64,000 bases of DNA from Novakomyces olei (GCA_016906335.1 JADEYG010000007.1:2542001-2606000); one strand, 5' to 3'. Shown: positions 32,306 through 58,190, counted from the first letter of the stretch. The notes: generated by a model from the sequence alone, not told the origin. A program made the numbers and translations.

Positions 32306-32463
32306 ATGCCACACAATTTACACTTGCAACTTTTTGATCAATTTTCCTACGTTTCGACAGAAATGCTTTTTGCTCATTCTACTTGCTACAATTTAGCAAA
32401 TTGTTGATTTGCTTAGTGACGCTGACATAAATGTGTGGCATGACACAATTGTCTGTCATAAAT

Positions 32464-34294: not shown

Positions 34295-34365
34295 TTTCTG
34301 ATTTGCCTGAATTCATTTCGCTCCATCGCTTTTATCTAACCTGCTCACCACTAGAAGGGTCCTGC

Positions 34366-34534
34366 AGATAAGGGAGGGTAAACATATCCCTCTAACAAAG
34401 AATCAATAATAAAATAATAAAATATATGGAGATAAAGAAAAATATTATACCCTATGACTTTACCCGCCATGTTCATAACTTCTTACCCGCCGGCGGGCCG
34501 CTGATAATAAGATAAAGCGTTTTCCGTGCTTATC
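34366..34534. promoter_or_regulatory. Divergent amidase/NCS1 promoter with clustered GATAA(G) (nitrogen-catabolite GATA) sites and CCCGCC/GGCGGG motifs
   Basis: GATAAG, GATAAA, GATAATAAGATAAAG and CTTATC within ~170 bp. CCCGCC at 34463 and the palindrome CCCGCCGGCGGG at 34486-34497. Confidence 0.6.
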
Positions 34535-34610
34535 AATAACCTCATAAAAAGCAACGTCAAAAGCTGATGATGGACAAAGTTAAGATTGGTTTTTTGATCG
34601 CGAGCTCACA

Positions 34611-36335
34611 ATGGCACCAAAAGCACTGTTGAAACTAAAATCACGACTTGAATTGCATCCAGAGTCAGGAACATTTATCAGTAGCAGCCAGGAAACAGCT
34701 CGATGGTCTAACCGTGATCTCGATCCCATAAAGTTCAAAAATCGCAAATATGAATGGTACCATATTGCGGGGTTCTGGATCTCTGATGGCTTTGCTGCCA
34801 TCAACATGGAGAATCCGTCTAGCGCATTCTCGCTCGGGCTGAATCCAGGTTTGTCTGTGCTCGCCTGTTTTATCGCAAACTTGTTTGTTGTCGCGCCGTG
34901 TATGATATCTGGTTACATTGGTACGAAATACGGGATAAATTTTTCGGTCTTGATGCGAGCAAGTTTCGGAATGTGGGGGTCTTATTTCGCCATCATTATT
35001 CGCGGTGTTGTCTGTGTTATATATTACGGCCTTTTGTCGTCTTTAGGGGGTCAGTGCTGTTACCTGTGTATTACTGCTATCTTCCCACAATTTGCAAATT
35101 GGCACTTGAATGCTTTTCCAGAATCAGCATACACAACTCCGCCAGAGCTTGTTGGATTTGTCGTGTTTTGGCTTGGCTCACTCCCGTTTTTGTTTATTCC
35201 AATGGCAAAGTTACGGTACATCTTCTCAATCAAAACCGTTCTCGTGCCTTTATTCTATGTCGGTCTGCTTACGTGGGCCGTCACTGCATCAGGGGGATGG
35301 CCAAAACATATCTGGCAGGCTAAAAATAACGTCACAAATGGATTCTCTGCGGCGTATGTCTTTTTCTATGCTGTCAATGCTACAATCTCCGGAAATGCGA
35401 CTTATTGTTTGAATATGCCTGATTTCACTAGAAACTCGAAAAAGGCAAAAAGCACAATGCTTGCTCAGGCTGTTACTATTCCTGTACTGATGACACTAAC
35501 TGAGCTTTTAGGCACAGTTATTGCTGTAGCCTCGGTAGCAGTTTACGGAGGAGATATCGTGTGGAATCCTGTTGAAGTACTCATGCTCTGGCATGATAGA
35601 CCAGCGAAGTTTTTTGTGGGAGCCTTTTTGGCCTTTTCGATGTCTGTAACAAATATTATCGGTAATTCCGTTGCTTTTGGGAACGATCTCACCGCGATCT
35701 TTCCTAAGTATATAAACATTCGACGGGGCCAGCTTATTTGTGCTATCCTTGCATTTGCTATTACGCCTTGGAATATGTAAGACTTGGCCTTGTTTTTTTT
35801 AACCTTTTTTGTCTGTTTAAACTAACTGGCTAACCTGATATATAGTCAAGCGAAAGCCACACGATTTCTTTCGTTTCTTAACGGATATACAATTTTTCTT
35901 GGACCGATCCTGGGAATTATGCTCTGTGACTTTCTTTTTGTACATAGGCAGGATCAAATCGGCCTAGTCCAGCTTTTTCAACCGCAAGGCGTTTACAAGT
36001 ATTATAAGGGATTTAATCTCCGAGCGATTGGTGCTTTTTTTATGGGATCTGGAGTGCTTTATCCTGGGCTTGTATATAACATTGGTGCGAAGGTATCAAA
36101 CAAGCCAATCATCGAAATCTTCTCAATGGCTTGGCTTTTTGGCGCCACAGTTTCTGGTCTCTTCTATTATTTATTTAACCGTATCTGGCCTCTTTCATCT
36201 CAATTTTCGGATGCGATTTATAAAGATCGCGACATTGCTGCTTCTTATCTGTACGAGGCGGATAATGCACCATATTTGGATGGGTTTGCCCAAGAGCCGA
36301 TTCAGCAGGCTGTTATTACTGAAACCAAGAGTTGA
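34611..36335 (+). CDS. NCS1 nucleobase/allantoin/hydantoin permease (FUR4/DAL4-like), 1 intron (35777-35845)
   Basis: WSNRDLDP, FWISDGF, YGINFSVLMRASFGMWG, NMPDFTR, NSVAFGNDL..IFPKYINIRRG, PWNI. Confidence 0.94.
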
Positions 36336-36607
36336 ATAGATACATAGGTTTTTTCACTATTTCGTTTTAGGTCTGAAGTCTTCTATCCATTTTAAAATTT
36401 AAATCATAATTAAGTCATTTAAGTACGTAAAAACCTTTGGCTATCCATCGGTATGATATGTGCATCGTCTAATTTTTCAAATTGTGTATAAATAAATTAA
36501 AGACTCTTGGAATAATATTATCGCTTTTATGCCATGTGCTTATCATTAATTTTGCATTACTTAGACCAAATGCTCAAGTTTAGATATGTTCCGCGCTTAT
36601 GATTGGC

Positions 36608-36639
36608 TGGCGGGCCTAGGCGGCATATTGGCGGGCCTA
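36608..36639 (+). promoter_or_regulatory. Direct repeat TGGCGGGCCTA x2 upstream of the racemase gene
   Basis: Exact 11-bp copies at 36608-36618 and 36629-36639. Confidence 0.55.
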
Positions 36640-36812
36640 CGTGGGCTGTAGCCATGATAAAAAATGCAAATAAATGTACAAAGATGAAGGAAATCAAATG
36701 TTCGATTCTTCAAAATTTTGTCTCAATTTGAACCTGATTCCTAAAAACCTAAACAATACAGCGGCATTTAATTTTAGCTTTCAGGCATACACTGCTTCCT
36801 CCAGCTTCACAA

Positions 36813-37721
36813 ATGGTTATCAAAATTCTATTACTTAATCCGAACAGTTCACAAGTAGTCACTTGCGCTTGTGATGAGTTGGTGCGGCCCACTCTTCCTA
36901 ACGACGTCAAACTAGACTCTTTATCGGCACCTCAGGACAGTGTCCCTGCTATTGAAACATTTAGCGATATCATTACCAGTGCATCTGCTACAGCAAATCT
37001 CGCAAAAACAAAACTCGATGAGTATGATGCTTTCCTCGTTTGCGGCCACTGTGATCATCCGCTGATCTACATACTCCGTGAAGCCACAAACAAACCGGTT
37101 TGTGGAATAATGGAGGCTTCGCTGTATTCTGCTCGGACTCTTGGAACAAAGTTTGGTATTATATCTATTACTGAGCAAATTGCGGCTGCTCAGCGACAAG
37201 GTGTCACTAATTATGGATTGGACAAGTTTTGTGTTGGTGTGAGAAGCACCGGGCTTGGCGTGAAAGATCTGTCTAATTTACCGTTCGATAAAGTAATAGA
37301 TTTAATGGCGGTAGCAGGGAAAGAATTGGTTTCGTTGGGAGCTGATACCTTAACTCTTGGGTGTGCAGGAATGTCCGGGATGCAGGACGCAGTAGAAAAA
37401 GCTACTGGACCAGGAATCCCTGTGATTGATGGGTAAGTAAAAATAGAGAACCAAAAAAATAAAAATTATAAAAGAAAACACATTATAGCGCCGATAAACT
37501 GTGACATAAAATAATATGTAAAATAATATGAGGAAAAAGAAAGTCAAGAGAACATTTCGAACAAAGAACTAGAATATGTGTTTAAAATCCAATTGAGAAA
37601 TAAAGCAATTTAAAATTCAGACTAATTAGATAGCGCTGTTTGTGGAGTTCATCATCTAATTGGACTCGTCCGAGCAGGTCTCTACACTGCGAAAAGGGGC
37701 TGTTATGGTGTTAAGAAGTAG
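36813..37721 (+). CDS. Asp/Glu/hydantoin (allantoin) racemase family protein, DCG1-like, 1 intron (37433-37633)
   Basis: ILLLNPNSS, DHPL, PVCGIMEAS, TLGCAGM, PVIDG|AV. Confidence 0.9.
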
Positions 37722-38588
37722 AGTCTGCACACAGCTCGACAATTCTCAAATAGAGAGCTGAAAAACAGTCTTGAGGTTGATGTAATTGAGGACTGAAATT
37801 ATTTGCATTCGAAACCAATTGATAACTGAATAAGCGCAGTTGCCACTTTGTATACAAGTCTTTTCTTATCCAGACATTTCCATTTATGCAGAATTCATAA
37901 ATTATAATGGCTATGGTTTCATTGTTTATTTAAATGTACAAATACAAGAACTGAATTATATGTTTTTGATAATGTAATCACATTTGTAGCAAATCTCGAT
38001 TAGCTAGCTTATTTACAACATTACGGTGGTTTAGAGACAGAACATTTAACCGCTGTCCTACCTTGCAGATCAGTGTATGTCTTATTTTACGCAATAATTA
38101 AACTCCCAATCAGACAACTATTCTTAGATTAATTGAATATATTCGATGATTCAAGCCCGCAAGTATGTCACGAAACTACTACGCAACTTTTGAGGGCATA
38201 TTTTTCCCACAAGGACTGTAAAAGCGGCAGCACCAATAGCCTGAGAAGGTTGTTAAAGGTTGTGGCTAAAGCAACGAGTCACGTTATAACGGCCCGTCAG
38301 AAATGGTACAACTGTCACTTACAAATAATATAGTACTTGAACAACATGTGAAATAACTTAATGATCTTGGATGACATGATAGCCTGATTAACCCTAATAT
38401 CCGAAACAAGCGGCATCTACATTCGTGTATTCGGAGATTAAAATGACGTGGAAGGCGTATATACGAGATTAAACGTTGTAGCTTGGCCAATCGGATTTAG
38501 GTTTCGGAGATCCATTCTGGTGACCTGAGCTTGTATAAAAAAAGTGCGGGGTGACGGGCCGCTCTTTTCAAAATCATCATTAAAAGAA

Positions 38589-39597
38589 ATGGCTGGAGAT
38601 TTGGTACTTGTAACAGGAATTTCGGGCTTTATTGCCCTTCGATTGGCAGATGATCTGTTGTCTCATGGTTTCAGAGTCAGAGGGACAGTAAGATCAGCTA
38701 ATAAGGCAGAAAAAGTACGCGGATTATTTCCGCGCTACGATTCTTCGCAGCTGGAATTTGCGATTGTGCCGGACGTTGCCTCGGAAGGCGGATTGGATGA
38801 AGCAGTGAAAGGAGTCAAATACGTTTGCCATACAGCGTCGCCTGTCAATTTTTCCATAAAGGACAATGAAAAGGATTTGCTGATTCCGGCTTACAAGGGA
38901 ACGACCAATGTTTTAGCAGCGGCGGCCAAGGAGCCTGGCGTCAAACGGTTCATTGTGCTGAGCAGTTTTGCGTCAATTATTGATCTCTTCAAGGGTTACC
39001 GCAAGGGCTATACTTACACGGAAGCCGACTGGAATCCTGCCACTTATGACGAAGCAAAGGTTTCAGACAACCCTGGATTTGTGTATTGAACTTCAAAGAC
39101 AGTAGCAGAGAAGGCAACTTGGGAATTTATTGAGCAGAAAAAGCAAAACTTTGACTTGGTCGCGATTTGCCCACCATTGGTTTTTGGACCACCTCTGGAA
39201 GGATCGGCGGAAGACAAGTCTCATCTCAACGTATCTACCGCCGGTGAGTGGGCCTTGTTTAATGGATCATTTAAAAAGACACCATCTGTGGCCTTCCCTG
39301 TCTGGGTGGATGTCCGTGACGTCGCAAGGGCCCATGTTTTGGCTCTGACAAGTGAAAAGGCTAGCAATCAGCGATTCTTGCTCATAGCTAATGAGTTCCA
39401 CAAATCAGCAGATTGTGGATTGTGCACGCAAGCATTTTGCGAACGATAGCCGGATCAAATTGCCCGAAGAGCGATCAGACGAACCTGACTTGTCCGAATT
39501 CTACGATGTTGATGCCTCCGAGGCACCGCGCTTACTCGGGTTTGAGTACACTGGTCTTGAACAGAGTGTCATTGACACAATTAAAGTGCTTGCTTAG
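38589..39597 (+). pseudogene. GRE2/ARI1-like NADPH-dependent aldehyde reductase (extended SDR) with in-frame TGA and a frameshift
   Basis: VLVTGISGFIA, VRGTVRS, HTASP. The catalytic YxxSK motif reads Y*TSK (TGA 39087-39089). A 1-nt insertion near 39399 shifts the C-terminus. No intron signals at either lesion. Confidence 0.85.
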
Positions 39598-39738
39598 TAG
39601 GACACTAAGGTTAGAAATAAGATACAACATGCTGCAGTGTTTTTAGATTTCAGAAGAAAGATTTTACATAAGAAATAAGAAATTTGTTTTTGTTAGCTGG
39701 CGTGAATAATACAATTTGGTTCCACTCTGATGTACTTT

Positions 39739-42276
39739 TTAAACGGCTCCATATCCAATTTTTTTAGTTTCTTGTGCCTTCAACGCAGCCTGGCAAGTCT
39801 TTGTGACCTCTAATAAGTATTCTTCGCACAATCGCCGCTTGACCAGCTGTACCGTTACAGGACACCCGTCCATAGCCTCGGGGCAATCTGTTATTCGTTA
39901 ACCCTAAAGTTTGCTATTAGTCTTACATTCTTGCCATATCGTGGCTTCCAGATCGTTGCGTCCGCGATATTCGACGTTTTGGTCCAGAGAGGGCGTTACA
40001 CGAGTAACGGGAAGCGTTGTGGCACAGTAATCGAGCACGTTCCATAAACTGCAGTAATTATCGTAAGAGAAAGCGTACCTTTGACATTAGAAACCAAATT
40101 CATTCTAAAGACAAGATTGTAGTAAAATATTAATACGCAGAAAACACCGTAAATTGAAGAGTAAGTTCATTCAAATCAAAGATTAAATTAGACAATGAAG
40201 AAGCTTACTGTGAACATGCAGGCCATGGAGTACACGGCATCAGCAGTGCGTCAATCTCTCGTCCTGTCCCCGTTCTTGACCGGGTTGTATCCCAAGATTC
40301 CATCATTGTTTTCGCAAATGCCGTGCGCTTCGTCTGAGCGCTCCACAAGTCGAGGACAGAGGCAGGAGCCAGCCCATCGCTCTCAGTCAGATTCTTTAGC
40401 ATGTCAAAGCCTCGAGGCCACGGCTCTTTTGTATAGCTGAGAGTGTTTTTTATCAACTCTGCCGCAGCAGAACGATACAGCTCGTGCTTCAAGCTGTTTG
40501 GGTATAGAGGATCATCGCTTGCCAAAGTGTCAGCGTAAATGAAATTAAAGAAGAATCGAAGAACAAATTGATCTATTTATAAAATTAAACACATGATGAC
40601 TGCAGAAACAATCAAGATTATTCATTTTTGTTGTAGAAAATGTCTTGTTGATTGCCGATAATTACATTGAAAACTCAATCACTCGGTGGCCCTGGCTTTC
40701 AAGGGCTTCTCTCAGCCTTAAAAGCGCCCTCTCAACAGGCGGCAAAGGGCGCACAACACCGTCGTCAACAAGAATTCCTGCAAAAAATTAGTGCGAAAAA
40801 CCCAGGGCAACAAACCAAAACAAAGTCGCTCAGGAAGGCTAATATTACGCCATGGGATCGGCAAACATTCCGGATCAGCTATTATCCACGGCTGACTCTC
40901 TACCACGGTTTTGCTCCACAACTCAACCGCCGTCAGCGACGTTGACATAGGGCCTATCGTATTGCGAACGGCCTCGGACCCTTCCATACCGTCCCGTAAT
41001 CCCGACGTCGGGAATCGTCCGGACGAGGGTTTGAGCGAGTATAATCCGCAAAAAGAGGCCGGAATTCCTAAGAGCTCTATCAGCTTGCGTAAACATGATT
41101 ATTATCCATACGAATAGAGCCGCCGACATCGGTGCCAATGCCGAGAGGTGATCCTTTCAGCGCAAGGAGCGCGCTTTCTCCGCCGGAAGAACCGCCGCTC
41201 GAAAGACTGCGGTCGTAAGGATTGCAAGTGTAGCCGTAAATGGCGCTAAATGTCTGTTTGCAAACAGATTAGCATTTAATAGATAGCAGAATAAATCAAA
41301 TAGAACTAAATAATTAAAAAATTAAAAAATTTTAAACAAAATCTAAATGCAAAATTAAACAAACGAATAAATATTTAATAAAACACCAAGAGTCCATACT
41401 TCACCAGCCATTAGTCCAGGAGGCACCGCAGTCTTGCAAAACAAAATAGCTCCGCTTTCGCGCATAATGCGCGTAATTTCGGATTCTTCATCAGGTCGTG
41501 TCGGCTGCTGCATCGCGAACGCAGTAAACCCGATGGCTGCATCGGTGTCTCGTACCCGAAAACAATCTTTCAAGGAAACCGGCAGACCATGAAGAGGCCC
41601 GCGGACGGTATTTGTATCCGCATACTCGATATCTAGCTGCCTCGCCGCTTGGAGCGCGGCTTCAAAGAAAATCTCCGATAAGCAATTGACCTATTTGTTA
41701 AAAAGTCAATTTGACCTATAAGATAAAGATGTCAAACCCCGGATTCTTTCTTGGGAATAGTGGAAAAATTAAACAGACAGATTATCCGATAAGTATAAGA
41801 ATAGAAAAAACTGTCAAAATTGAAGTGCCAAGTAATGCAACTGTCTTTGATATTTTATTGAAAAACAATTAGTTACATAAATGCCGAGAAATAAAAAACA
41901 AATTTGAAAATATTTGCTTACAAGCTGTTGTGCAATGGCAGCGCGTTTGCAAAATGCCAGAGTCACCTTTATAAATTTGTGTTAGAGCAGCTAGCAAATA
42001 AACATGCGATAATACTTCGTATGCGCTGTACTTTCTTTCAGCTAGTTTTTGCACCAGAATAGGGGCCTCTGTCTCTGTAATTTCCGTTTCTCGAGACGTC
42101 AAGATACCGCAAGCAGATGGGACATCTATAACATTGCGCTGCGTTTCCGGAACTCGACCATGAGCCAGCTGCCATTCCTCTGGGATTGCTGCGTCTCTCT
42201 CGGTCCGCTTAGCTCGGGCAATTGTCTCCCATTTTTGAATTGCTATTTCCTCATTACTCGTCCCGTAGTCCGGCAT
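39739..42276 (-). CDS. Amidase signature family amidase (acetamidase-like), 8 introns
   Basis: [77 protein letters not shown]. All exons join in frame. Confidence 0.92.
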
Positions 42277-42760
42277 TTTTCTGTCCGCTAGTTGTGCATC
42301 AAATGTAGCGCGTACAGCATTTGCTTATTTTTGAACAGGCATAAACAAATATAATGCATAGCTTCATTACAAACCCCACAGTAGCATTGCAGGCAAATAG
42401 ACCACATTGGACTCTTAAATTTGTTGAACGCACCCCCGATGCACTCCGACACTTTAGGGAACGGAAGCTTATCGCTCAGTTTCGGAATTTCCGATACTAT
42501 ATCGGCAGTCCCGGTAGAAATACTTGTTATCAGCCGATACCGGTCAGTGCCACCTGTCAGCTACTGCGAACGTTCGCTACAAATTTGCGTGACCTTTTGA
42601 TATCGGGGCGCGAACGGCGGGCGATTTAGCTCATTAAAATTCGCCACTCAGCGCACTCTTTTGTTCACGGACAGACATTTAAAGCCTTGCTCGTTTCACT
42701 TTTACAAACAGTCTCTCCTGCGAAACGTATAGTATTGCGATAACAAAAGGCGCACTGGAT

Positions 42761-43948
42761 ATGTCTGCAGCTGAACAAGATACGGCTAAAAGCTCGTCGG
42801 CAAAGACGAAGCTTCGAGATGGTTATGCCGTTGTTGGCAGCAATGGCGTCGGTGACGACGATGCGGTAATACAAGTCGAGCGTCACGACTATGCGGACGT
42901 AGCCCCTACAAAGAGACCGCGTGTCCAATCTCTCGAGGGATTCGATGACGTTTACACGGACATTGTGGACTATATTGTGCGCTGCACACACAAAATCTGG
43001 GACGAACGGGACATTGGCTTGATCTACACGCACTATACGCACAACTGTGTGTTGTACGGTACGATGCGAACGGTTTATGATCGCGAGTCCGTCGTTCGGG
43101 ACACGATCCAGCGCCTTGTGTCGTTTCCCGAACGGCGCGGGATGGCGACCCACGTTTTATGGCGCGGAAATGACAAGGATGGGTTTTACACTTCTCACCT
43201 TGTGACTGGCTCTGGCCGGCACACGCAATACGGTCATTTTGGCCCACCCACAGGCCGTGCCTTTGTATCTCGCACTATAGCGGACTGCATGATTTACCGA
43301 AACAAAATTTACCGCGAATGGGTAGTGGCCGACAATATGGCCATTGTTAAACAGCTCGGCTTGGATCCGAACCCGATCGCCCTGGAATCAGCACGTGACT
43401 TGTACACTCGCGGCATGGAGACCATTGATATTGGTGAAAATCGGCGAATTGTCGGCCAACAATTGCCGCCGGACGAAGTCGATACCTCGTTTGCTCACAA
43501 CGAAATCGAGGTCGAAACTTTGAAATGGCTGCATGAAGTATGGAACCGTCGTATGTTTGGTGGCATTCAAAAGATTTATGCTGTAAACGCTCAGTATCAC
43601 GGACCTAATATGGTCGAATTGTTTGGATCAGCGGCTGTTCTGCATCAACATTTAGCCCTGCTCGGATCTCTTCCGGACGGTGTCTATATGCCGCAGCATA
43701 TCTGTTCGAACCCGTGTGACGAAGGCGGGGTCAAAGTAGCCGTCCGCTGGATCATTGAAGGTCACCTCCTGGGTTACGGAATTCTAGCATCTCTCGGAAA
43801 ACCCGAAGGTCAACGGATCCAGATCATGGGCATGACGCACTACCATTACAAGAACGGACGCATTGTGGACGAATGGAATGTTTATGACGAGCTCTCGATA
43901 CTCATGCAAATTAAACTTGCTGAGCTTGTTCGGCAAGGCAAAGATTGA
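42761..43948 (+). CDS. Tandem SnoaL/NTF2-like (ester cyclase family) protein, intronless
   Basis: Two related halves (KIWDERDIG...FPER...GRHT..GHFGPPTG...KIYREW and EVWNRRMFG...LPD...GHL.GYG..GKPEG...GRIVDEW), typical of double SnoaL-like proteins. Confidence 0.8.
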   Translation: MSAAEQDTAKSSSAKTKLRDGYAVVGSNGVGDDDAVIQVERHDYADVAPTKRPRVQSLEGFDDVYTDIVDYIVRCTHKIWDERDIGLIYTHYTHNCVLYGTMRTVYDRESVVRDTIQRLVSFPERRGMATHVLWRGNDKDGFYTSHLVTGSGRHTQYGHFGPPTGRAFVSRTIADCMIYRNKIYREWVVADNMAIVKQLGLDPNPIALESARDLYTRGMETIDIGENRRIVGQQLPPDEVDTSFAHNEIEVETLKWLHEVWNRRMFGGIQKIYAVNAQYHGPNMVELFGSAAVLHQHLALLGSLPDGVYMPQHICSNPCDEGGVKVAVRWIIEGHLLGYGILASLGKPEGQRIQIMGMTHYHYKNGRIVDEWNVYDELSILMQIKLAELVRQGKD

Positions 43949-44844
43949 AAATAAAAGTAGGACAGCAAGAACCCAATTGGAGTCGAGTAGATTAATTTTA
44001 AACTGCAGTTAATTACATTATTTTTACCGGCACTAGTATGCTTGGACAATTTGGTATGGTAGAATTTTAGTTGCACGTACTGTTTAGCGTCGTTGCTGTT
44101 ATTCTGAGTTTGTGGGCCAAATGCTAAATTTTGGAGTTGGCAACTAATGTTCCGACCACGTAAATTTAGACTAATGCTTGAGAGGGTATTTTGGTTTGTC
44201 GAATTGGTAAATTCGACTCGTATCTTAAATCACTCAACGTTTTGCGTGGATTCTTAATGCAGCAGTTTTTCTCATAAGAAAAATATAAGGTTGAGGTCTA
44301 CGTTCAGAATTTTTAAGTGGAACTTAAAATTTATTTTAAAAAATGCCAACTTGAAGACTGCCACCTTATATTGGAAACCAATACTTTTGATCTTTGAAAC
44401 TTATGATAAGCCTCCTTAACAGAATGTATTCATCCACTGCCCGCCTTGTGCTTGACAGCTGGTTGATTGTATTACTTTTTCCGATACGGATCTTATCACA
44501 GACTTGGATATCAATTCAATCTATGAAATAATTATTCTTGTTTTTATCTTGTTCTAATTATAATTGTACCCCACCCGCCCTTTGCGCTGTAGCAACTCTG
44601 TGATTGGTCAGATCTCATTTACTATCAATATTGTGTCTTGCCAAATTAATATGAGAGACTCTCAAGGGACGGCTTTGCCGATGAAGCCGTGTCGGGCACG
44701 CTACGTGGGATCCCGCTTATCGTGCCCAAGCCGGTTGATAAAGACATGCAAAAAGCTATTATATTGTGTGCAATCGGCCAAGGAGCCACTTTCCTCAGCT
44801 TTGCTCTCAGCTAGTATCAAAACTTCAACAATTAGCAAAGTGAA

Positions 44845-46571
44845 ATGGCCCATCCTGACGTGGCCGGCTCCCATGTACTTCATCGCTCGTTTGCCGATCG
44901 CCCACTTAAAGTCGTAGCGGCGCGTGGCATTCGACTTATTCTTGAGTCCGGTGTTGAGGTTTTAGATGCTTCCGCTGGTCCCTCGGTCTCCTGTCTTGGC
45001 CATTCGAGACCGGACGTAGCTGAAGCAGTTGCTCAGCAGCTGTCGGCCGTGCCTTATGTTTATTCTGGCGCGAGATTTACGGCATCTGCAAACGAAGACC
45101 TGGCCGAGCATGTCCTTCGAGAGCGTCCTGGCGGGCTGACTAAGGCAATTTTTGTGAATTCAGGCAGCGAGGCCACTGATGCTGCACTCAAGCTTGCGTT
45201 CCAGTACTGGCGCGAGTCGGATGAACCACAAAAACGGTTCGTTATAGCGCGAAAGCAAAGTTACCATGGAAACACGATCGGTGCACTCTGCGTGTCGGGC
45301 CACGAATCGCGTCGTGCTTACTATAGCGATTGGATGTCAAACAACGTACGATTCGTTGACCCTTGTTTCGCTTACCGGTTCAAACGCGCCGGAGAATCCG
45401 ATGATGCTTATGTAGCGCGATTGTCAAATCAATTGGAGCGCGAAATCTTGCAACTTGGACCGGAGAATGTTGCTGCTTTTATTGCGGAAACCGTGAGTGG
45501 TACCACACTAGGCTGCGCTGCTGCTGTGCCGGGCTACTTTAAAGCCGTTCGAGCTCTTTGCGACAAGTACAATATCCTTCTCATCTTGGACGAGGTATGC
45601 TTGATTAATGAGATAAATTACATTGAACTAGGATCTAATATTTCTAGATTATGTGTGGTATGGGTAAAACTGGGACAATGCATGCCTGGCAGCAGGAAGG
45701 CATTCGTGGACCAGATATCCAAACTATTGGCAAAGCATTGGGCGGTGGATTTATCCCTCTGTCGGCCGTTCTTTTGCACGAAAAGATTTTCAATGTCTTG
45801 GCATCAGGAACCGGCACACTTGCGCATGGCCATACATTTCAGGTATGATCATTTCATTTCCTTTAATTTGATTCCTAATTAATTTAAACCGATTGAGTAC
45901 CCTTTGTTCACTTTTGATATTTCTGTTTTATTTTAAATTGTTCAGCTAGCTATTTATTTGTCTTTAAATCGATTAACTGTACTTTTATGTGCAAATCGTT
46001 TCTCACATGTCAGGCTCATCCAGCGGCATGCGCTGCGGCACTGGCGGTTCAGAAGGCCGTTGCTCGAGAAAATTTGATAGAGCGAGTCGGTAAAATGGGC
46101 GAAGTTCTAGGTCGCCTACTGCAAACCCACATTGCACCTCTTCCTCTCGTCGGAAATATTCGCGGCCGTGGCCTCTTCTGGGCTGTTGAATTTATGCTTA
46201 ACGGGCCGAGCCGAATCCCGCCCCCACGGGAGGCTAAATTCTGCGATCGGGTTGTAGACAGAGCTCTACGTCTTGGCCTCAATATTCTGGGGAATTTGGG
46301 GGTGACTGGGCAAGTTTATGTGGACCATGTTATTGTGTGCCCGCCTTATATTGTGACAGAAGAGGAGTTGCAAAGTATCGTCATACTGCTCGCACAAGCT
46401 ATTGAGCAGGCCTCTGATGAGCTGCGCCATTGGACTATGGGCAACATGGACGCGCCCGTTGAGGAAAAGCAGTCTGCCAATGTTAATGGCTTCGCAAAGA
46501 CTAATGGCTTCGCAAAGACTAATGGGCTTGCCAAAATCAACGGGTTTACGAGCCAAGAGACTGCTTTGTAG
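44845..46571 (+). CDS. Class III PLP-dependent aminotransferase, 2 introns (45595-45647, 45843-46013)
   Basis: LDASAG..VSCLGH, NSGSEATDAALK, SYHGNT, LILDE|IMCGMGKTG, PDIQTIGKALGGG (PLP lysine), HGHTFQ|AHP, IRGRGLFWAVE. Confidence 0.95.
46485..46556 (+). repeat. 18-bp coding tandem repeat (NGFAKT-type x4) in the aminotransferase C-terminal tail
   Basis: AATGGCTTCGCAAAGACT x2 exact, followed by two diverged copies. Confidence 0.85.
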
Positions 46572-46858
46572 ATCAGACTCATTGTTTATATTCGAATAAA
46601 TAAATAATTAATACATCGTTGCTTTTGATATATTTAGTTGGAGCTGATTATTCGCTTCTCTACCCCTCAATAAAAAAAATTTAATTATATCAACCGTAAC
46701 TATGTTTACGCTAAGGACCAGATTTCAATCATATTAGTTTTTCATTTATTTCATTTATTTGTTTGCACGTGACCGTGCAGAGCTTGATCGCAAACTAATG
46801 CGCCCTAGGGTTTATGACCCTAACCCTAAATCTAAACTTGTCTTAAAGTGATCGCGTG

Positions 46859-47431
46859 CTAGCGCACGAACTGATCCGCAAACCCTGCGCCCAGTCCGAC
46901 CGCCTCGTAGTGTTTTCTGGCAGCTTGTAATTTACTGAAAACATCCTCGACACCAACGGGATTGCCGTCCGGGTCAACGTAAATGTATGCTCCAGTGACG
47001 TGGAAAAGGGTTACCATCTCTTCCACGTCATTTGGAACCTGCAGTGTATGAATATCGCCTGGAGGCTCAAACGCGTACCCGCCTGGAGTGGCCCACCAGT
47101 CGTGCTCGAGGTAGTGCCAGCGTCCACGCAGTACAATAGCGTGCACGGGTCCGGCATGTCGGTGACGCGATAAAATGCCCGACTTTCTGACACGCAAAAT
47201 ATTGACAAAATAGCCCTGGGAAACGCTGAAACAGAGTGGTCTGAAATGGACTCCAGGGCTTTGCGGAACCCACAGCCTTTCATCGCACTCAATATCCATT
47301 GCACCTGGCACAACTAGATCTTCAAGTACATTGGGCAGCGGATCACCTCTATACGCAATGGCTTTACTATCGCCGCGGGCCGATGCCGCAGCATTTTCGG
47401 CTTGAGAAACAGTAGAATCTGCCAAAGTCAT
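46859..47431 (-). CDS. Cupin dioxygenase, 2,4'-dihydroxyacetophenone dioxygenase (DAD)/ChrR-cupin family, intronless
   Basis: WVP..PGVHFRPL, RHRHAGPVH..VLRGRWHYLEHDW.A..G.YAFEPPGDIHTL with the three-His metal site, F.VTG.YIYVD.DG. Confidence 0.88.
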   Translation of the reverse strand: MTLADSTVSQAENAAASARGDSKAIAYRGDPLPNVLEDLVVPGAMDIECDERLWVPQSPGVHFRPLCFSVSQGYFVNILRVRKSGILSRHRHAGPVHAIVLRGRWHYLEHDWWATPGGYAFEPPGDIHTLQVPNDVEEMVTLFHVTGAYIYVDPDGNPVGVEDVFSKLQAARKHYEAVGLGAGFADQFVR

Positions 47432-47779
47432 TGTGTAACGAAATGCGGCGGCAGCTCATTGATGCGCTACGTCTGGTTTTTGTACCCATACTTTTCTGCT
47501 CTTTTCTCTCGCTACCGGTTCCTTCCTTGCAGCAATTGAACCGTTGATCAGTTTCTCCAATAGAATTGCTTCAATTACAAAACAGTGCAAACACGCAATC
47601 TCGGCCCCGCGCCACAAGCGCTAACAAGTAATCAACGCTATCGCGATGTCAGCAACCTGTCAATCTAGTTTTCGGCAAAGCCGAACTAGATATCGGAAAA
47701 CCGGTAAAGCCGACATCACCCGATCTTGACAACATCTTATCCCACGGATTGGATTCTGGAGAAAAGTACCAAACAATTA

Positions 47780-49428
47780 ATGGCTCTCGCGGTGCCAGCC
47801 AAGGGCGGCTATACTCGACAGCGTCAAGGATGCTTGACTTGCCGTCAAAGGTTAGCAGCCTTGCTTTACTCATCCTAAACTGTCTTGAAGGAAAAAAAAA
47901 TGCGATCGACGGTACCCTGTTTGCGGTCATTGTGTACGATTGAACTTGGCTTGTGAACACGAAGAACCAAGGCGCGTTGTTTGGCGGAAATCTGACGCTA
48001 CTAAAGAACCAATTTGTTCGGCTGGACAGCCGAGCGAACGGTCCCAGGTCCATGTGGCTCGAATTTACAATGCTGTTGATGACGCAGTATGGCATGGACT
48101 TGAAGGCGATTTGTTAGCCAGCCGCCGAGCCATACTGCGCTACTACACGACTGTATTTGTTTACATGCTGTCTACAAACTCGGAAAATAACAGTTTTTTG
48201 TCGGGTAAGCCTTTTTACAGACGAGAATTTTATTAAAATTATTATAGTAATGGTGCCGATGGCATTTGAGTGCCAGGCGCTTATGCAATCTCTGGTTGCA
48301 TGGGCGGCTTCACATTTAGCAGCACGGGACCCTGTGCTTGAGCCTTTAGCGCTGCAACACCGTGGAACAGCTCTACAAGCAATGAAGGTAGCAGTCGAGG
48401 CCAATGCGTTATCGGCAGAGATGTTTCTCGCCATTGCTATGGCGCTCTGCTCTATGGAGTGTATTTCCGGTGGCGGTGGCTCATGGTACTGCCATTTACT
48501 GGGTGGAGCAGTTGCCCTCGGCTTCCTCGGTCGGGATACCGAGGCCGTTGTCGGCCCGGCCACGACTACACGCCGGTCTATCGTACGACTGCCCACGTTT
48601 GAAGGGGGATGGCTGCTCCGCAACTTTGCCTATCACGATATTCTTATGAGCATCACGCTTGATTCTGGGCCTTTAGTATCAGGGTATTACTGGACGGCAG
48701 ACGACGGAGAAGACGGGTCATGTGGTACCGGAAAAGCCGACGCGTACTTTGGACTTGCTTCCCGAATATTGTACCTGACAGCACAAGTCAGCGAGCTGAA
48801 TTATAGTTTTGCTGAGCAAAGTGGTTTTCGCAGTGGGAGGAAAAGCAGCGGCTCGGGGAATCGATCCGTTTGCACAGCGCAACGGGTTCCGCAGGGGCTT
48901 GTCTTAAGCTGCACACCGAAAACCACACAAGAATCGGCTTCACTTAGCAGAGCCCGGGAGATTGAGACGGAACTGCTCTTATGGAGCTGCCCGGCCGAGT
49001 ACAATGAAACCGCGCTTCAATTACTGGCTTTTTCGTATCGCAGTGCTGCACTTTTGCATCTTTATCGGACACTGAGGCGCTATTTTCCCGATTTAAAGAC
49101 AGAATTGGAGACAAAGATGGCCCAGCATGTAACGCACATCTCTGAAATAGTTTTGCAGATGAGCGAAGGCTGCTTGGCAGAATGTACTTTACTTTTTCCG
49201 CTCTTTATGGCCGGCGGCGAGGCGGAAGACCCAGAGCAGGTGCGGGTTATCCGTGAAAAGCTCGTCTCTATTAATAAATGGCGGCGGTTCCAGAACGTTG
49301 ATCTTGCTCTTGAAGTGCTGGACGAGCTTTGGCGGCTAAGACGGGCCGGGTCACTGGGGCCAGACGGCACTAGACTGGATTGGCTACACATTACAAAGTC
49401 TCGCAATATTCAGCTGGCTATTTCTTGA
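47780..49428 (+). CDS. Zn(II)2Cys6 transcription factor with Fungal_trans_2 domain, 2 introns (47851-47890, 48205-48247)
   Basis: Spliced N-terminus GCLTCRQR|KKKCDRRYPVCGHCVRLNLACE. C-terminal FAYHDIL, YRSAALLHL, LLFPLFMAGGE, L.VLDELW. Confidence 0.9.
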
Positions 49429-49630
49429 AAGTCTCAATAGTATAGTGACATTTAAAAGCAAATTCAGCAAGGAGTATTAGGTGCGCATTAATTCTCATGT
49501 TTATTGGTGCGAGTAATTGAAGGTTCAGTAAGTGTGATTAATATGTTCTAGATTTTTATTGGTTCAGGTCTATGTTTAGCTATTCTAATCTCAAACTTAT
49601 CCCCCTTTAACAGATCTGATAGATATTGCA

Positions 49631-51426
49631 TTATGGATTAACAAGGTATACACGGCCCTCAAACGGAGCCAATGAATCTGACTTGTTATCCCGTACCGTA
49701 GACATAATCTGCTGCAGATCCACACTCGCACCACTGGGCAGAGTGAGCTGTTCCGCGCTAGGTTTTTGAAAAGGTAAATGCTTTGCGGTAAAGTTCAGCA
49801 CAACCAGAGCTTTGGATCGTGCAAAAGACTCCTTAACAAAAATGTGCAAGTCTGGATGTTCTGGTGCAACATCCTGATAGTCGCCATAGACAAAAAAATC
49901 CTTGTACTTGCGTCGTAGTGCAATAGCCTTTCGCCAAAATGCAAATACGCTATCCGGATCATCAAGCTGGGAAGTCACATTGATTTCCTTTGCTAGAGGA
50001 TGGGGCTTCATCCACGGCTCTTTGACCTCCTTGCCTGCTGCCTCGGCTGCTTCGGAAAAGCCGCCATACTTTTTATCGGACCACGCCACCGGGATTCGGG
50101 TATGATCCCGGGCAAAGTAGGCGAGCGCATTAAAGGCCTTGTCCAGTGCCAGCGCATTGTCGGCACCGTACTTTTCCTTGATTGAAGTAATGTGTCCCAC
50201 GCTCCCGATATCCAGATAGTTTTCCAGCGGGTATTCTGCCTTTGGCGCGTTTATACTCCCAATTTCCTGGCCCTGGTAGATGTATGAGTTCCCGTAAGAC
50301 AGGCCTGCATGAGCGCCAACAGTTTCGCACTGCGGGCGCGGAATTCTGGACTATCATCCGCGAAGCGGCTGACGGACCGGGCCTGATCGTGATTTTCGAG
50401 AAACACGGTACTCCACCCGTCCGTATTGCGAATAAGCGATTGTGTCGCATCGATGGCGCGTTTAAACACGGGCAGTGTAAAGTCGTGCGGCTCGGCATCG
50501 TACGTTATAGCCTTGTTCATGCCGACGGAAACGACGTCAAATTGAAACACCATATTTAAAGCGTTCGCTTTAGCGCTTACATACTCGAGAACATGTCGCG
50601 GATCCGGTGTAGTGGAAAGTTCTCCGACAGTTATGGCGCCGTACGCGTTTAAAACACGGCTCATTTCTTCCAGGTATTCAAACATGCGAGGCCCATTGCA
50701 CACAAGTTTCCAAGCTGGCTGATAAGGAGCGCCCACGTCTACAATGGGCGCATCGGGAAACGTGGGCGGTTTACTGTACATGTTTACCGTATCCACACGG
50801 AACCCGTCAATCCCACGTTTGAGCCAAAACTCCATAGCCGATGCGTAGATTGCCTGTCGGGTTTCGGCATTGTCCCAGTTCAAATCTGGCTGCTCAATGG
50901 CAAACACGTGGAGGTAGTACTCTTGCGTGGCTTCATCCCACTCCCAGGCACTGCCGGGTCCCCAGGCGGCCCGCCAGTTATTCGGCGGCAGCCGTTCTCC
51001 GGTGGCGGAGTACCGGGCAGGACGCCAAATATACCAGTCACGCTTCGGGCTGTCCTTACTGCTCCTTGACTCCTTGAACCAAGCGTGCTGGTCGGACGTG
51101 TGATTAATGACAAGGTCCAGCATAACCTTGATGCCCCGTGCATGAGCCTCGCGGACAAGATCGTCCACGTCCTGAAGGTCTCCGTACAGCGGATCGACAC
51201 GTTCGTAATTCGAGATGTCATAGCCCATATCGACACGCGGACTCTCGTACATAGGGCAGACCCATACGACGTTGACGCCGAGCGTTACGAGATAATCGAG
51301 CTTGCTCGTAATACCGCGAATGTCTCCGACCCCATCGCCATTAGAGTCGTAAAACGAGGACGGGTAGACCTGATACACTATCGCCTCTTTCCACCATTGC
51401 CGCGTGTGAGTGCTAAAGGCCGACAT
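49631..51426 (-). pseudogene. GH13 alpha-glucosidase (maltase/oligo-1,6-glucosidase type) with a 1-nt frameshift at ~50285
   Basis: WWKEAIVYQVYPSSF, DLVINHTS, QPDLNW, DGFRVDTVN, TVGE, LENHDQAR. The conserved GTxYIYQGQEIG motif is restored only by adding one base (GGA ACT C-A TAC ATC TAC CAG). Confidence 0.82.
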
Positions 51427-51998
51427 GTCGGTGGCAGCGGCAGCAACGCGGCCAAACCGTCGGGAACGCCATGCCTTAAATTCGCGCTCGTTATCGCTGC
51501 CACTCGTAAATCTCTAGCCAATCAACATATACAGCGTATAGGGTTAGGGTTAAATGTTTTCAATATTCGGTAAAACCGCAATTGTTTCCCGATATAGTCT
51601 CGGCCATCGCAGAATATATGAGCGATAAGGCGCGAAGGGCGGTGCCCACGCAGCGCTGATTGCACCTGTCAAAAACCAGCCAGGCTAATGTGAGATAACG
51701 TATCTCACGTCAGCCGAGTGCTGACGTGTACAAAGCGTCTCTATCTCGCGGCGCACATTCGAATGGCGTATGCCCACTTATCGCGCGCGACACACCTGGC
51801 CAATCGCGTTCCATCGGCATTGCCGATGAAGCACCGGGTTCTCTTATCCACACGTTATCAGGAGAAAATAATGGGGAGATAAGAGTACTTGCAGGAGAAA
51901 ATTCAACATGACAGGTGAACTGCGCGCGGCTTTAAATTGACGAGCAAAGACCGCATTGTACGACAACTTTTAGAGATCGCTATACCTTTTATTACAAA

Positions 51999-54111
51999 AT
52001 GTCTACTTCAACAGCTGACGAAATTTCCGGCACTGCTCTTGGGCAAAGTTTTTCTTCGGAAAAGAAAAGCCCGAAGTCGAAGACGAGCAGGCCAAGGCCA
52101 ACGTAGTCTACGGCACCGTCCATGTTGCCGACGAGTCTGAACTCTCGTACTTTGAACGCAAAGCCGCATTGATCAATGAGTGAGTGTTCCAATCTTGGTT
52201 CAAAATTTTACCAGCTTTTTTGGCCAGAGTTATTATTCTTTTTTATTTTTTTTTCCTTAGCCTTCAATCAAGCCGAACCTTTGATTCTTGAAATATTGTC
52301 TATGTCTATTCCTATCGAAGCTTTCGGCTAACATGTATAGCGAGCTCGACAAATTCGGGTTTGGCAGGTACCAGCAATGCATTTGGCTGCTCTGCGGATT
52401 TGGGTATTTTTTAGATCTTGCCTGGTCACAGGGCGTTGGCCTCATGGCAACGGCCGTATTGTAAGAAAACCGTTGTTAGCTTTTACTTACGCATTTGAAA
52501 GCCAGGAAATGAACGTTCCGGCTGGCCGGCAAGGCCTCATCTTCACCTGCGCAAATGCCGGACTAGCGTATGTTAACCCTAACCCTCGATTAAAAATCTT
52601 AACAGTATTAGGATTGGTGCCTTTTTCACAGGTATTCTCACAGACATTGTCGGGCGCAGATGGGCTTTCAACATTACGTGCCTCATTACTTCCGTATTTG
52701 GCATGCTTCTTGTAAGTTTATACCCAAACCAATTTGAACAACTTGCTAACTTTTCAAGGCTGCCAGTAAATTCAACTATGGAGCTATTTGCGGCATTTAT
52801 TTCTTGTCCTCTATCGGTCTTGGTGGAAACATTCCTATTGACGCTACAATCGCCCTTGAATTTATGCCACCTAGCCGCCGGTACTTGGTATCCCTGCTGA
52901 GCATGTGGCAGCCAATTGGCGTCGTTGTTGCTTCGGCTATTGCTTACGGCACGGCTGCCCGGTACCGATGCGGGGCCGATCTGCCTTCTTGTCGGGCTGT
53001 GAGCGAAGGCGAAGCTTGCTGCTCTGTCGCCAGCAACATGGGATGGAGATATATGGTTATTGTGATTGGTGCAATGACTCTCTTCATTTTTTTTGCTCGC
53101 TTCCTAATTTTCCGATTTTACGAGTCGCCAAAGTTTCTTGTAAGCAAAGGCCGCGAGCAAGAGGCAATCGACGTTTTGCACAAAATCGCTAAATTCAATC
53201 GTGCACCGGCTCCTACTCTCACTATGGAACATTTCTACGAAATTGATCGCGCAATGGGTATTGACCGTAATGCCCTTAAAGCCACAGTTGATGCCAAGGG
53301 AGCTTTTACGCGCGCCGTGAACGACATCAAGTTTCTTAAGGGTCTTTTTGAAACGAAAATGACGTGTTTTCTTTTCGTTCTTCTCGCTTTCACCTATATG
53401 GTAAGACTTGATTTAGTTTCCACGCCTTTTTACAAACGTTGTGATTCACAATTTCGTTTAAATTAATATTAAATCCAGAAACAATTATCTGCTCTTTTAT
53501 TTCTAAATTTGTCAATATAATGTCGTTATTATTATATTTTGTTTAGCTTTATTATACTAACATCCCAGGGCAACTACTGGTCCTTTAATTTGGCCGGGTC
53601 TTTCCTTCCAATTATTCTGCTTCGCAATAACGTGAGCTCAGGCGCTACAACTGTCACTGAAACGTATCGTGAATATGTGTATATTTACTTGCCCGGAATT
53701 ATTGGTGCAATTATCGCTCTTTTCTCTGTTCAGCTGCCTTTGATTGGGAGAAAATGGTCGCTCGTTATTTCTGCTGCTTTACAGGGTCTGGCAATGGCCA
53801 TGTACACACAAGTGAAAACTACGGCAGGCTACGTAGGGCTCAACGCTTTCGAGTACATTATGCAGACTTATTTTAACGCTGTACTTTACGCATCGGCACC
53901 GGAGCTTTTCGATACGCCATACCGTGCCAGTGCTAGCGGTATGTTGTCCTGCCTTGGCCGAATTGCCGGGATTGTGGCGCCTCTGGCAGGACAGCGATAC
54001 ATTGGACAAGGCAGCCAGGGAGTCTTGTGGCTCGGTGCTGGCGGTATTTGGCTGTCCAGTATTCTCATGGTATTTTTGCCCATCGAGATGCGAAACAGAC
54101 AGATGTATTAA
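51999..54111 (+). pseudogene. SV2-like MFS transporter, 5 introns, apparent frameshift in exon 1 (~52065-52070)
   Basis: FERKAALIND|ELDKFGFGRYQ, DIVGRRWAFN, GGNIPID, GWRY, ESPKFL, LYASAPELF..YRASASG. The ATG 51999 frame stops at 52104-52106, and the conserved frame has no upstream ATG. Confidence 0.65.
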
Positions 54112-54651
54112 GGCTGTGCTTATAATCTTGTTCAAACGCTTTTACAGTAGATATAATAAAGAATTTTTTGATTTAGCGTAATTAATTGAAATTGTGTAGA
54201 TTGGTAAACCTTGTAAATTTTTTATATATAAACAATTACATGATTGTGTAATCTTGATCAAGCGAGTCGAAAGACTGCTAAATAATTGGAATATGTTCAA
54301 AAAACAATTAATAGTAAATGAAAAACTGCTCTAAAAAATATAAAATTATAAAATAGCCGCACAAATGATCTTGAGTAATTGGTACAAATAACAGTTTTGT
54401 TCATTGGGCAACTCAAGCTTAGAGGTAGCAAAGACTTTTATGACTTTAGGTGAAAAAAATCGCATGTCCCTTACACAAGAATTCCAGCTAATTAAAAAAT
54501 AAACACGATGCACCGATGAAAATATTACCATAATCAAATAACAAAGTAAAAGAACTGGTGATAATATATAGTCAAATATACAAACATGTTTCCCACATTC
54601 AAACCATTAGCCATAAGCAAGAACATAAAAGCAAATACGCAGACGGAAATT

Positions 54652-57430: not shown

Positions 57431-58190
57431 TAAAAGCTTTGCTGCTTTACTTTTTTCTGCCCTCTCGCAGCATTGTTACTGCAATGCCGATCGACCCGCT
57501 CTCAGTTTGTGATTACAGTTTATATTCTTTGTTGTACTTCGTCAGTCTGTCTACACAGTTACTGATAACAGTTATCTGATAGATTATCAACGCTATGAAA
57601 TGGAAATTTAAATAATAAAAACTCCTATAAATAAAGGTTTTTTTAATTTATGGAAGTAACAATATGGCCATTGACAGCTCCATTAGCGGCACGAAAAAAG
57701 TAGCCCCCACCACACCTCGCGTTCTACCTAAAACCAATGCGCTTTTCTCGACTCAAGCACGCTGTTCCTGAAGCCAGTAAAATCATTGATTCAAGTTGTA
57801 AAAATCCATGTCCCGATTGTGATTCCCCAGCGTCTGGCTGCGATTTGATTGGCCAGCTCGTTAAAAACTAGTATTACAGCAAGACTGCTTTCACGCTGAA
57901 TCAAGTCATCTTTCCAGTATCTGCCTTTTGGAGCATTCTCAAAAGAAAACCCTGACAGAAAACCCTGTACGTCAGTTTATGCTAACGTTTATCAACTTCC
58001 CCTAGACCATCGCTCGCAAGGTTACCTTTACTAAAGACCCCACACTTGCGCAATCACTTTGATTTATTCTTGCAATTTATGACCAACGCTAACTAATTCG
58101 AATAACGAAATGTCTGAACAATGTGACGGGTCTATACCCGTCATGGACTCGTATTCATACAATACTATACAACTATACACACTCGTAACC

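Follow-up and report, generated by a model that had tools for sequence, protein, structure and literature searches.

Two conserved gene modules, one nested within the other, in a candidate catabolic cluster of Novakomyces olei

In a 64,000-nucleotide stretch of the Novakomyces olei genome (hereinafter designated the window, with positions counted from its first letter), five contiguous genes at 39739-49428 encode an amidase, a tandem SnoaL protein, a class III aminotransferase, a cupin of the 2,4'-dihydroxyacetophenone dioxygenase (DAD) family and a Zn2Cys6 transcription factor (TF1). An earlier reading made from the sequence alone (hereinafter designated the sequence-only reading) had taken these genes for a single five-gene unit. 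Comparison with other genomes indicates that the locus is instead best described as two conserved modules: M1, comprising the amidase, the tandem SnoaL protein, an MFS transporter and a second transcription factor (TF2), and M2, comprising the aminotransferase, the cupin and TF1. M2, together with a GH13 alpha-glucosidase gene, sits inside M1 in the window. The two gene sets probably serve the uptake and degradation of a nitrogen-containing compound, and we consider it about an even proposition that they form a composite catabolic cluster in which M1 feeds M2.

Gene models and conservation of the two modules

Spliceosomal introns, Zn2Cys6 factors and best protein matches in Hypocreales mark the window as fungal. 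All five genes of the block are intact, as judged by Pfam search and by spliced gene models in which canonical GT-AG splice sites were chosen to hold conserved motifs in frame. The outer stop codons of the block fall exactly at 39739 and 49428, and the genes form the two divergent pairs around the aminotransferase that had been described, namely amidase/SnoaL, separated by 484 bp, and cupin/TF1, separated by 348 bp. Contigs of two DNA runs, X1 and X2, span the block with zero indels within the five genes; one X1 contig of 21 kb spans 39962-58500, and X1 may be the assembly's own source. The genes of the two modules are as follows.

39739-42276, minus strand: M1 amidase, 570 aa; PF01425 on two exons; nine exons in the predicted splice model (exons 1-5, 42276-42016, 41966-41922, 41690-41400, 41253-41112 and 41067-40816; exons 6-9, 40777-40666, 40517-40209, 40078-39927 and 39887-39739)
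42761-43948, plus strand: M1 tandem SnoaL protein with two NTF2-like domains, 395 aa, single exon; PF07366 twice, PF12680
44845-46571, plus strand: M2 class III (omega-type) aminotransferase, 500 aa; PF00202; exons 44845-45594, 45648-45842 and 46014-46571
46859-47431, minus strand: M2 DAD-family cupin (Cupin_7), 190 aa, single exon; PF12973, E 3.5e-18
47780-49428, plus strand: M2 Zn2Cys6 factor TF1; PF00172 (Zn_clus) and PF11951 (Fungal_trans_2); exons 47780-47850, 47891-48204 and 48248-49428
52339-54111, plus strand: M1 MFS transporter, SV2/sugar-transporter-like; PF00083, PF07690
54655-57309, minus strand: M1 second factor TF2; PF04082 (Fungal_trans), Cys-rich N-terminus

The spliced 570-residue amidase belongs to the amidase-signature family, carrying PF01425 and the motifs GGSSGG and GGSIRIPA; we take its catalytic residues to be those of the Ser-cisSer-Lys triad. 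In the aminotransferase, positions 11-232 and 293-403 of PF00202 map to exons 1 and 3, the model contains DEIMCGMGKTG, and the IGKALGGG stretch, which presumably holds the Schiff-base lysine, lies on exon 2. The top NCBIfam match of the aminotransferase is PRK07483, with 290 and 97 bits over two parts against a cut-off of 485. Its C-terminus (about 46460-46568) repeats an NGFAKT/NGLAKI motif (NGFAKTNGFAKTNGLAKINGF), owing to which the protein reaches 500 aa compared with 454-488 aa in the listed orthologues. The six-cysteine cluster of TF1 is complete after splicing (CX2CX6CX6CX2CX6C), which places the protein in the Zn2Cys6 family. Five predicted introns are very short, at 38-44 nt (41111-41068, 40815-40778 and 39926-39888 in the amidase; 47851-47890 and 48205-48247 in TF1), and have good donor, branch and acceptor signals.

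Homologues were searched with three queries (the SnoaL protein, the cupin and exon 1 of the aminotransferase), and gene order in other fungi was deduced from locus tags and sequential accessions. The association of aminotransferase, cupin and transcription factor pointed out in the sequence-only reading proves to be a conserved trio, and M2 is found in at least five genera. The cupin and the aminotransferase are neighbours, with the tags ACHAQA_006179 and ACHAQA_006181 in Verticillium albo-atrum, N7452_005331 and N7452_005329 in Penicillium brevicompactum, and the accessions KAI5458961 and KAI5458960 in Mariannaea sp. In six Colletotrichum species they are adjacent or at most three accession steps apart (e.g. 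EQB54387/88), and in Colletotrichum noveboracense the order is cupin, C6 transcription factor, aminotransferase (CAI0649541, 542 and 543). Seven of the listed aminotransferase models are long enough for fusion with a neighbouring gene; five of them, from Mariannaea, two Dactylonectria and two Fusarium, contain Fungal_trans_2, and those of Pleurostoma (685 aa) and Colletotrichum gloeosporioides 23 (878 aa) have no transcription factor domain on record. The fused models fit an aminotransferase(+)/cupin(-)/TF(+) layout such as that of the window. Aspergillus nanangensis is an exception, its two genes bearing the tags FE257_000827 and FE257_002653.

M1 is likewise conserved. On L081, a fungal metagenome contig of 46% GC whose SnoaL protein and the Penicillium hetheringtonii one are almost identical in the SnoaL tree, one contiguous 9.2-kb block matches all four M1 genes of the window by tblastx:

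39766-42294 in the window: amidase, collinear, 40-72% identity
42854-43948 in the window: SnoaL, 76% identity
52339-54111 in the window: MFS transporter, collinear with 7411-9153 of L081, 61-88% identity
54670-57307 in the window: TF2, collinear with 11529-13879 of L081, 51-64% identity

The two modules also neighbour each other outside N. olei. One gene lies between SnoaL and aminotransferase in Cordyceps javanica (V2A60_005139 and V2A60_005141), two in Aspergillus floccosus (KAL5360769 and KAL5360766) and three to four in seven Pseudogymnoascus assemblies. Adjacency of M1 and M2 is thus found in four lineages, counting the window, and the other three occupy separate parts of the SnoaL tree. 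Among the four named species present in both listed hit sets, SnoaL and aminotransferase are near neighbours in three. Because the arrangement is conserved in other fungi, the co-location of the five genes is not a chance juxtaposition; with enzymes, a transporter and pathway transcription factors co-located across species, the locus has the make-up expected of a fungal catabolic cluster.

The tandem SnoaL protein and the cupin

The SnoaL query returned 1867 matches, of which the 120 listed are 66-81% identical to it and include four classes of Ascomycota, a single basidiomycete yeast and the bacteria Rhizobium, Sinorhizobium, Mesorhizobium and Devosia; against bacterial genome loci the identity is 62-75%. 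PF07366 in two stretches (E 2.1e-22) and PF12680 assign the protein to the SnoaL fold. The AlphaFold2 model has two domains, each of helices and a curved sheet (alpha+beta), at a mean pLDDT of 63.5; only the C-terminal half is reliable, with values of about 80-88 from residue 245 onward, and residues 1-125 score under 50. Foldseek with this model retrieved SnoaL-like folds (E 1e-6 to 1e-4, TMt 0.6-0.78), the nearest being the polyketide cyclases and cofactor-free hydroxylases IdmH, AclR, SnoaL2 and ChaU, together with limonene epoxide hydrolase; Lsd19 (PDB 3rga), an NTF2-like protein of two domains, also matched but fits poorly (root-mean-square deviation 18.7). The structural matches confirm the fold alone and not the function. 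The best PDB sequence match (8ysb, E 8e-5) is marginal, and a protein atlas search returned only clusters named 'ester cyclase'. The window protein thus shares SnoaL Pfam domains and an NTF2-like fold with SnoaL, AknH, IdmH, AclR, SnoaL2, limonene epoxide hydrolase and Lsd19, and differs from these enzymes in being a fused tandem and in its catabolic-type operon context, as opposed to polyketide clusters.

Among 80 bacterial genome loci, the conserved neighbours of the orthologous tandem SnoaL gene, whose product is 63-75% identical to the window protein, include a HisD-like dehydrogenase (58), a LacI regulator (52), a short-chain dehydrogenase/reductase (SDR; 43), an amidase-signature amidase (35), an RraA-like protein (33) and a bicupin (32), as well as a sugar-type ABC transporter. 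The bacterial amidase is 26-37% identical to the fungal one, and matches of the bacterial regulon proteins to the window are limited to SnoaL and this weak amidase similarity; the bicupin has no significant similarity to the window cupin. Fungal M1 in turn lacks the HisD-like, SDR, RraA-like and bicupin genes, whereas the bacterial loci lack a class III aminotransferase and a Cupin_7 protein. Bacterial loci, L001, L021 and L013 among them, differ in how an alpha/beta-hydrolase accompanies the tandem SnoaL: in many bacteria it forms the N-terminal part of one fused protein of about 640 aa, and in others it is a separate gene upstream. The enterobacterial loci L071 and L072 have a further SnoaL-like gene, shorter and placed ahead of the tandem one. 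In a tree of 45 rows, made up of the window protein, 13 named fungal proteins, L081 and a spread-out choice of 30 among the 80 bacterial loci, with unnamed matches excluded, the 15 fungal rows all group together across a branch with SH-aLRT support of 99. This is compatible with a single transfer between kingdoms in a direction that the tree does not show.

The kinship with polyketide cyclases raises the question of a small biosynthetic cluster, tailoring a secondary-metabolite scaffold made elsewhere. An aminotransferase orthologue of Penicillium lagena is named 'secondary metabolism biosynthetic enzyme', and the window holds an NRPS-like A-T-R gene at 21660-24935. That gene lies 15 kb off, with unrelated genes between, and neither the cluster nor L081 was found to contain a polyketide synthase, nonribosomal peptide synthetase (NRPS) or terpene synthase. 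The bacterial orthologues of SnoaL stand in LacI/ABC operons of catabolic type, and conservation of SnoaL at 63-81% identity across kingdoms is unusual for tailoring enzymes. We therefore regard a biosynthetic role as improbable. The two dedicated transcription factors, the transporter and the placement of the bacterial orthologues in LacI-regulated transporter/dehydrogenase operons point to catabolism.

For the cupin, membership in the DAD family follows from its Cupin_7 domain and from sequence similarity: phmmer aligns residues 33-184 to DAD (PDB 4p9g) with E 5e-31 and about 45% identity. In DAD of Alcaligenes sp. 4HAP, the structure paper gives His76, His78 and His114 as iron ligands and models Phe43, Trp61 and Asp63, with Ser49 and Tyr153, as holding the 4-hydroxyphenyl ring or lining its pocket (PMC4219425). 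We mapped the roles assigned there onto the window cupin through the phmmer alignment and aligned the protein with the best 120 of its 2471 matches, which are fungal and bacterial and 67-85% identical to it. The iron ligands are kept as His90, His92 and His128, and Tyr93, Val82, Glu108 and Phe129 of DAD as Tyr107, Val96, Glu122 and Phe143; these iron-site and catalytic residues are conserved in 119-121 of the 121 sequences. The ring-binding residues of DAD are replaced throughout (Phe43 by Gln57, Trp61 by Phe75, Asp63 by Asn77, Ser49 by Phe63 and Tyr153 by Lys167), as are two further ring or entrance-pocket positions (Trp137 by Tyr and Phe148 by Glu), and the replacements are invariant in 120-121 of the 121 sequences.

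The window cupin thus shares with DAD the Cupin_7 fold, a length of about 180-190 aa and a three-His iron site, and differs in its pocket and in being partnered, in fungi, with an aminotransferase. We assign it to the DAD superfamily as a distinct and tightly conserved subfamily, predicted not to be isofunctional with DAD. Because fold, iron site and catalytic residues are kept, its chemistry is likely the O2-dependent cleavage of an alpha-hydroxy-carbonyl. The pocket replacements suggest that its substrate differs from that of DAD and is more polar, and probably not a 4-hydroxyphenyl compound. DAD itself acts after hydroxylation of 4-hydroxyacetophenone, not after transamination, and the papers on DAD that our literature search found include none on a fungal enzyme. 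By homologue search, cupins of the actinobacteria Nonomuraea and Rhodococcus are about 75% identical to the window protein; bacterial relatives at 51-62% identity occupy 13 loci, spread over 12 of the 401 genomes sampled from a single phylum, presumably Pseudomonadota. An SDR gene adjoins the cupin in seven of these 13 loci, and a Sinorhizobium medicae row reads GMC oxidoreductase, cupin, SDR, Zn-dependent alcohol dehydrogenase (Zn-ADH) and aldehyde dehydrogenase (ALDH).

The pocket bears directly on the substrate class favoured by the sequence-only reading, N-acyl aryl-ethanolamines such as N-acetyl-octopamine, for which it had drawn a route of deacylation, transamination, isomerisation by the SnoaL protein to a 2-hydroxyacetophenone and cleavage by the cupin to a benzoate and formate. 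Such a route would make use of the cupin, a homologue of DAD whose catalytic core is intact, and of the conserved aminotransferase-cupin and amidase-SnoaL pairings and MFS transporter, and SnoaL lies near the aminotransferase in Cordyceps, an insect pathogen that encounters N-acyl catecholamines. Every residue with which DAD stacks on the 4-hydroxyphenyl ring or hydrogen-bonds to it is, however, invariantly replaced, including the change of Phe148 to Glu; M2 occurs without SnoaL or amidase nearby; and the bacterial SnoaL operons, with their sugar-type ABC, HisD-like, SDR, RraA-like and bicupin genes, contain neither an aminotransferase nor a DAD-like cupin. The acetyl-CoA synthetase (ACS) gene near the block is not syntenic on L081, and a literature search found no link between octopamine and dihydroxyacetophenone. 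The aryl-ethanolamine route is accordingly very unlikely. Nor does the SnoaL protein appear to be the necessary step between aminotransferase and cupin that this route assigned to it: M2 is named in genera that have no listed SnoaL match and occurs apart from M1, so SnoaL is not an obligatory isomerase between the two enzymes.

Possible coupling of the modules and a proposed pathway

Since M2 is nested inside M1 in this genome, M1 probably feeds M2. Apart from gene order, coupling may be reflected in the promoters, where the following motifs were located:

42277-42760: divergent amidase/SnoaL promoter, with CGGAATTTCCGATA at 42483-42496, CGGCAGTCCCG at 42503-42513 and three HGATAR
44478-44680: motifs upstream of the aminotransferase, TTTCCGATA at 44478-44486 and CGGCTTTGCCG at 44670-44680
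47432-47779: divergent cupin/TF1 promoter, with CGGCAAAGCCG at 47673, TTTCCGATA at 47691-47699 (minus strand) and CGGTAAAGCCG at 47702

TTTCCGATA has three copies in the window, distributed over the amidase/SnoaL, aminotransferase and cupin/TF1 promoters. CGG-N5-CCG occurs 23 times in the window where 6.8 are expected, a count reached in 0 of 100 shuffles; 15 of the 23 copies fall between 41 and 52 kb, seven of these 15 being intergenic, and on L081 four of six copies lie within M1 promoters. The shared 9-mer signal is weak (p about 0.05) and at most suggestive of common control. Enrichment of GATA sites was rejected: the sites reported earlier in two promoters are present, three HGATAR in the amidase/SnoaL spacer and six upstream of the aminotransferase, counts that are equalled or exceeded in 27% and 14%, respectively, of window stretches of the same length.

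The alternative is that M1 and M2 are independent pathways for unrelated substrates, brought together by rearrangement or by a shared neighbourhood of niche genes. Several observations weigh against coupling and towards this alternative. The modules lie on different contigs in three P. brevicompactum assemblies, and on L081 the aminotransferase, cupin and TF1 were not found within 10 kb of M1. M1 and M2 carry separate transcription factors, gene order within M1 is not the same in the window and on L081, and the unrelated GH13 gene also sits inside the block. M2 is named in Fusarium, Colletotrichum and Verticillium, none of which is represented among the 120 listed of 1867 SnoaL matches. In 160 SnoaL-centred loci (159 of them bacterial), the cupin and TF1 were each found in none and a relative of the aminotransferase in one, at 33% identity, so the SnoaL reaction does not require M2. 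The bacterial cupin relatives neighbour SDR, GMC and ALDH genes rather than aminotransferases; none of their 13 loci has an adjacent aminotransferase, the one relative present lying about 7 kb off at 28% identity. As for the promoters, at least two shared 9-mers arise in 4.8% of random sets of five non-overlapping regions, and many of the CGG-N5-CCG copies are in coding sequence of a slightly GC-richer stretch.

Independence would have to account for the spacing of only one to four genes between SnoaL and aminotransferase in the window, C. javanica, A. floccosus and Pseudogymnoascus, and for the occurrence of TTTCCGATA and CGG-N5-CCG in promoters of both modules. On this evidence we hold two unrelated pathways to be possible but doubtful, and continue with the composite cluster in which M1 feeds M2.

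In such a cluster, the M1 transporter would take up an amide-containing compound and the amidase would then hydrolyse the amide. The SnoaL protein may carry out a cofactor-free isomerisation, ring-opening or dehydration on its NTF2-like scaffold. The M2 aminotransferase would remove a primary amino group next to a hydroxylated carbon, as in a vicinal amino alcohol, and the Fe(II) cupin would use O2 to split the alpha-hydroxy-carbonyl so formed into formate and an acid one carbon shorter. For the aminotransferase/cupin pair, this sequence from amine to alpha-hydroxy-carbonyl to O2-dependent C-C cleavage is a reasonable proposal, given that the cupin retains the catalytic core of DAD. By stoichiometric reasoning, the alpha-hydroxy-aldehyde and alpha-hydroxy-ketone isomers would yield identical products; M2 alone would therefore suffice, fitting its occurrence without SnoaL. 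More speculatively, the pair may constitute an undescribed two-enzyme route for vicinal amino alcohols, with a cupin of polar pocket, that was captured in some fungi by M1, whose key enzyme, the tandem SnoaL, is shared at about 70% identity with a widespread bacterial regulon; the whole would then be a cross-kingdom pathway for an abundant amide-masked amino alcohol. We offer this extension tentatively and think it rather unlikely.

Surrounding genes, known systems and significance

Outside the modules, the window contains the following genes of interest.

21660-24935: NRPS-like A-T-R protein of carboxylic-acid-reductase type, single exon, 1092 aa; AMP-binding, PP-binding, NAD_binding_4
30224-31138, plus strand: Zn-cluster gene
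32636-34312, minus strand: second amidase-signature amidase
34584-36335, plus strand: NCS1 purine/allantoin-type permease
36753-37436, plus strand: Asp/Glu/hydantoin racemase
38529-39449, plus strand: NAD-dependent epimerase/3beta-HSD-like reductase, after the racemase
49631-51513, minus strand: GH13 alpha-glucosidase, between M2 and the MFS gene; PF00128
58266-60412, minus strand: ACS, adjoining TF2; ACAS_N and AMP-binding

The genes at 30224-37436 are possibly a separate catabolic set. The SV2-like MFS and ACS had both been put forward as nearby partners of the five genes; the MFS is syntenic with amidase and SnoaL on L081, and the ACS lacks synteny support as a cluster member, being absent beside the M1 block there. 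GH13 was not found on L081 by tblastx against the window, and its membership in the cluster is doubtful. Both X1 and X2 carry one extra base relative to the window at 50284, 51444, 52064 and 52750. The apparent frameshifts, which split GH13 into open reading frames at 49631-50350 and 50251-51513 and the MFS gene into 52583-52900 and 52750-53466, are thus probably assembly indels and not true gene breaks.

Two irregularities of the reads touch the locus. Over 39059-39918, the 3' end of the amidase and sequence downstream of it, X1 depth is about twofold and a second variant appears with 8-13 differences per 110-240 bases, which could be a second copy or an allele. One X2 contig joins 46754 to 55104 with 33 other letters between, a link that the list of joints does not include; either a misjoin at a repeat or a structural variant of the related strain could account for it.

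Release of an omega-amine by an amidase-signature amidase and its deamination by a class III aminotransferase have precedents in the omega-amino-acid/lactam regulon of Aspergillus nidulans (amdS, gatA, gabA and lamA/B under AmdR), which, like the present locus, has a Zn2Cys6 regulator, and in the bacterial nylon-oligomer genes for the NylA amidase and NylD aminotransferase. In contrast to the N. olei locus, the genes of these two systems are not clustered in this way, include no SnoaL protein and place an aldehyde dehydrogenase, not a cupin dioxygenase, after the transaminase. The locus is no categorically new system: all its gene families are already known, and a cluster of transporter, enzymes and Zn2Cys6 factor is of a standard type. 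The suggestion that it is a real and undescribed cluster is borne out by its conservation in other fungi and by a literature search, which, supplementary files not being covered, found no paper describing this gene set.

To our knowledge, fungi have only a small number of catabolic clusters, and every one described so far has brought new enzyme chemistry to light. From Enterobacteria and rhizobia through to Ascomycota, the tandem SnoaL protein retains 63-81% identity, and the nesting of M2 within M1 makes metabolic coupling of the modules a testable hypothesis. The substrate, if identified, would annotate thousands of genes now called 'ester cyclase' (1867 matches) or 'DAD family' (2471 matches), and could uncover a pathway in which amino alcohols undergo oxygen-dependent C-C cleavage.

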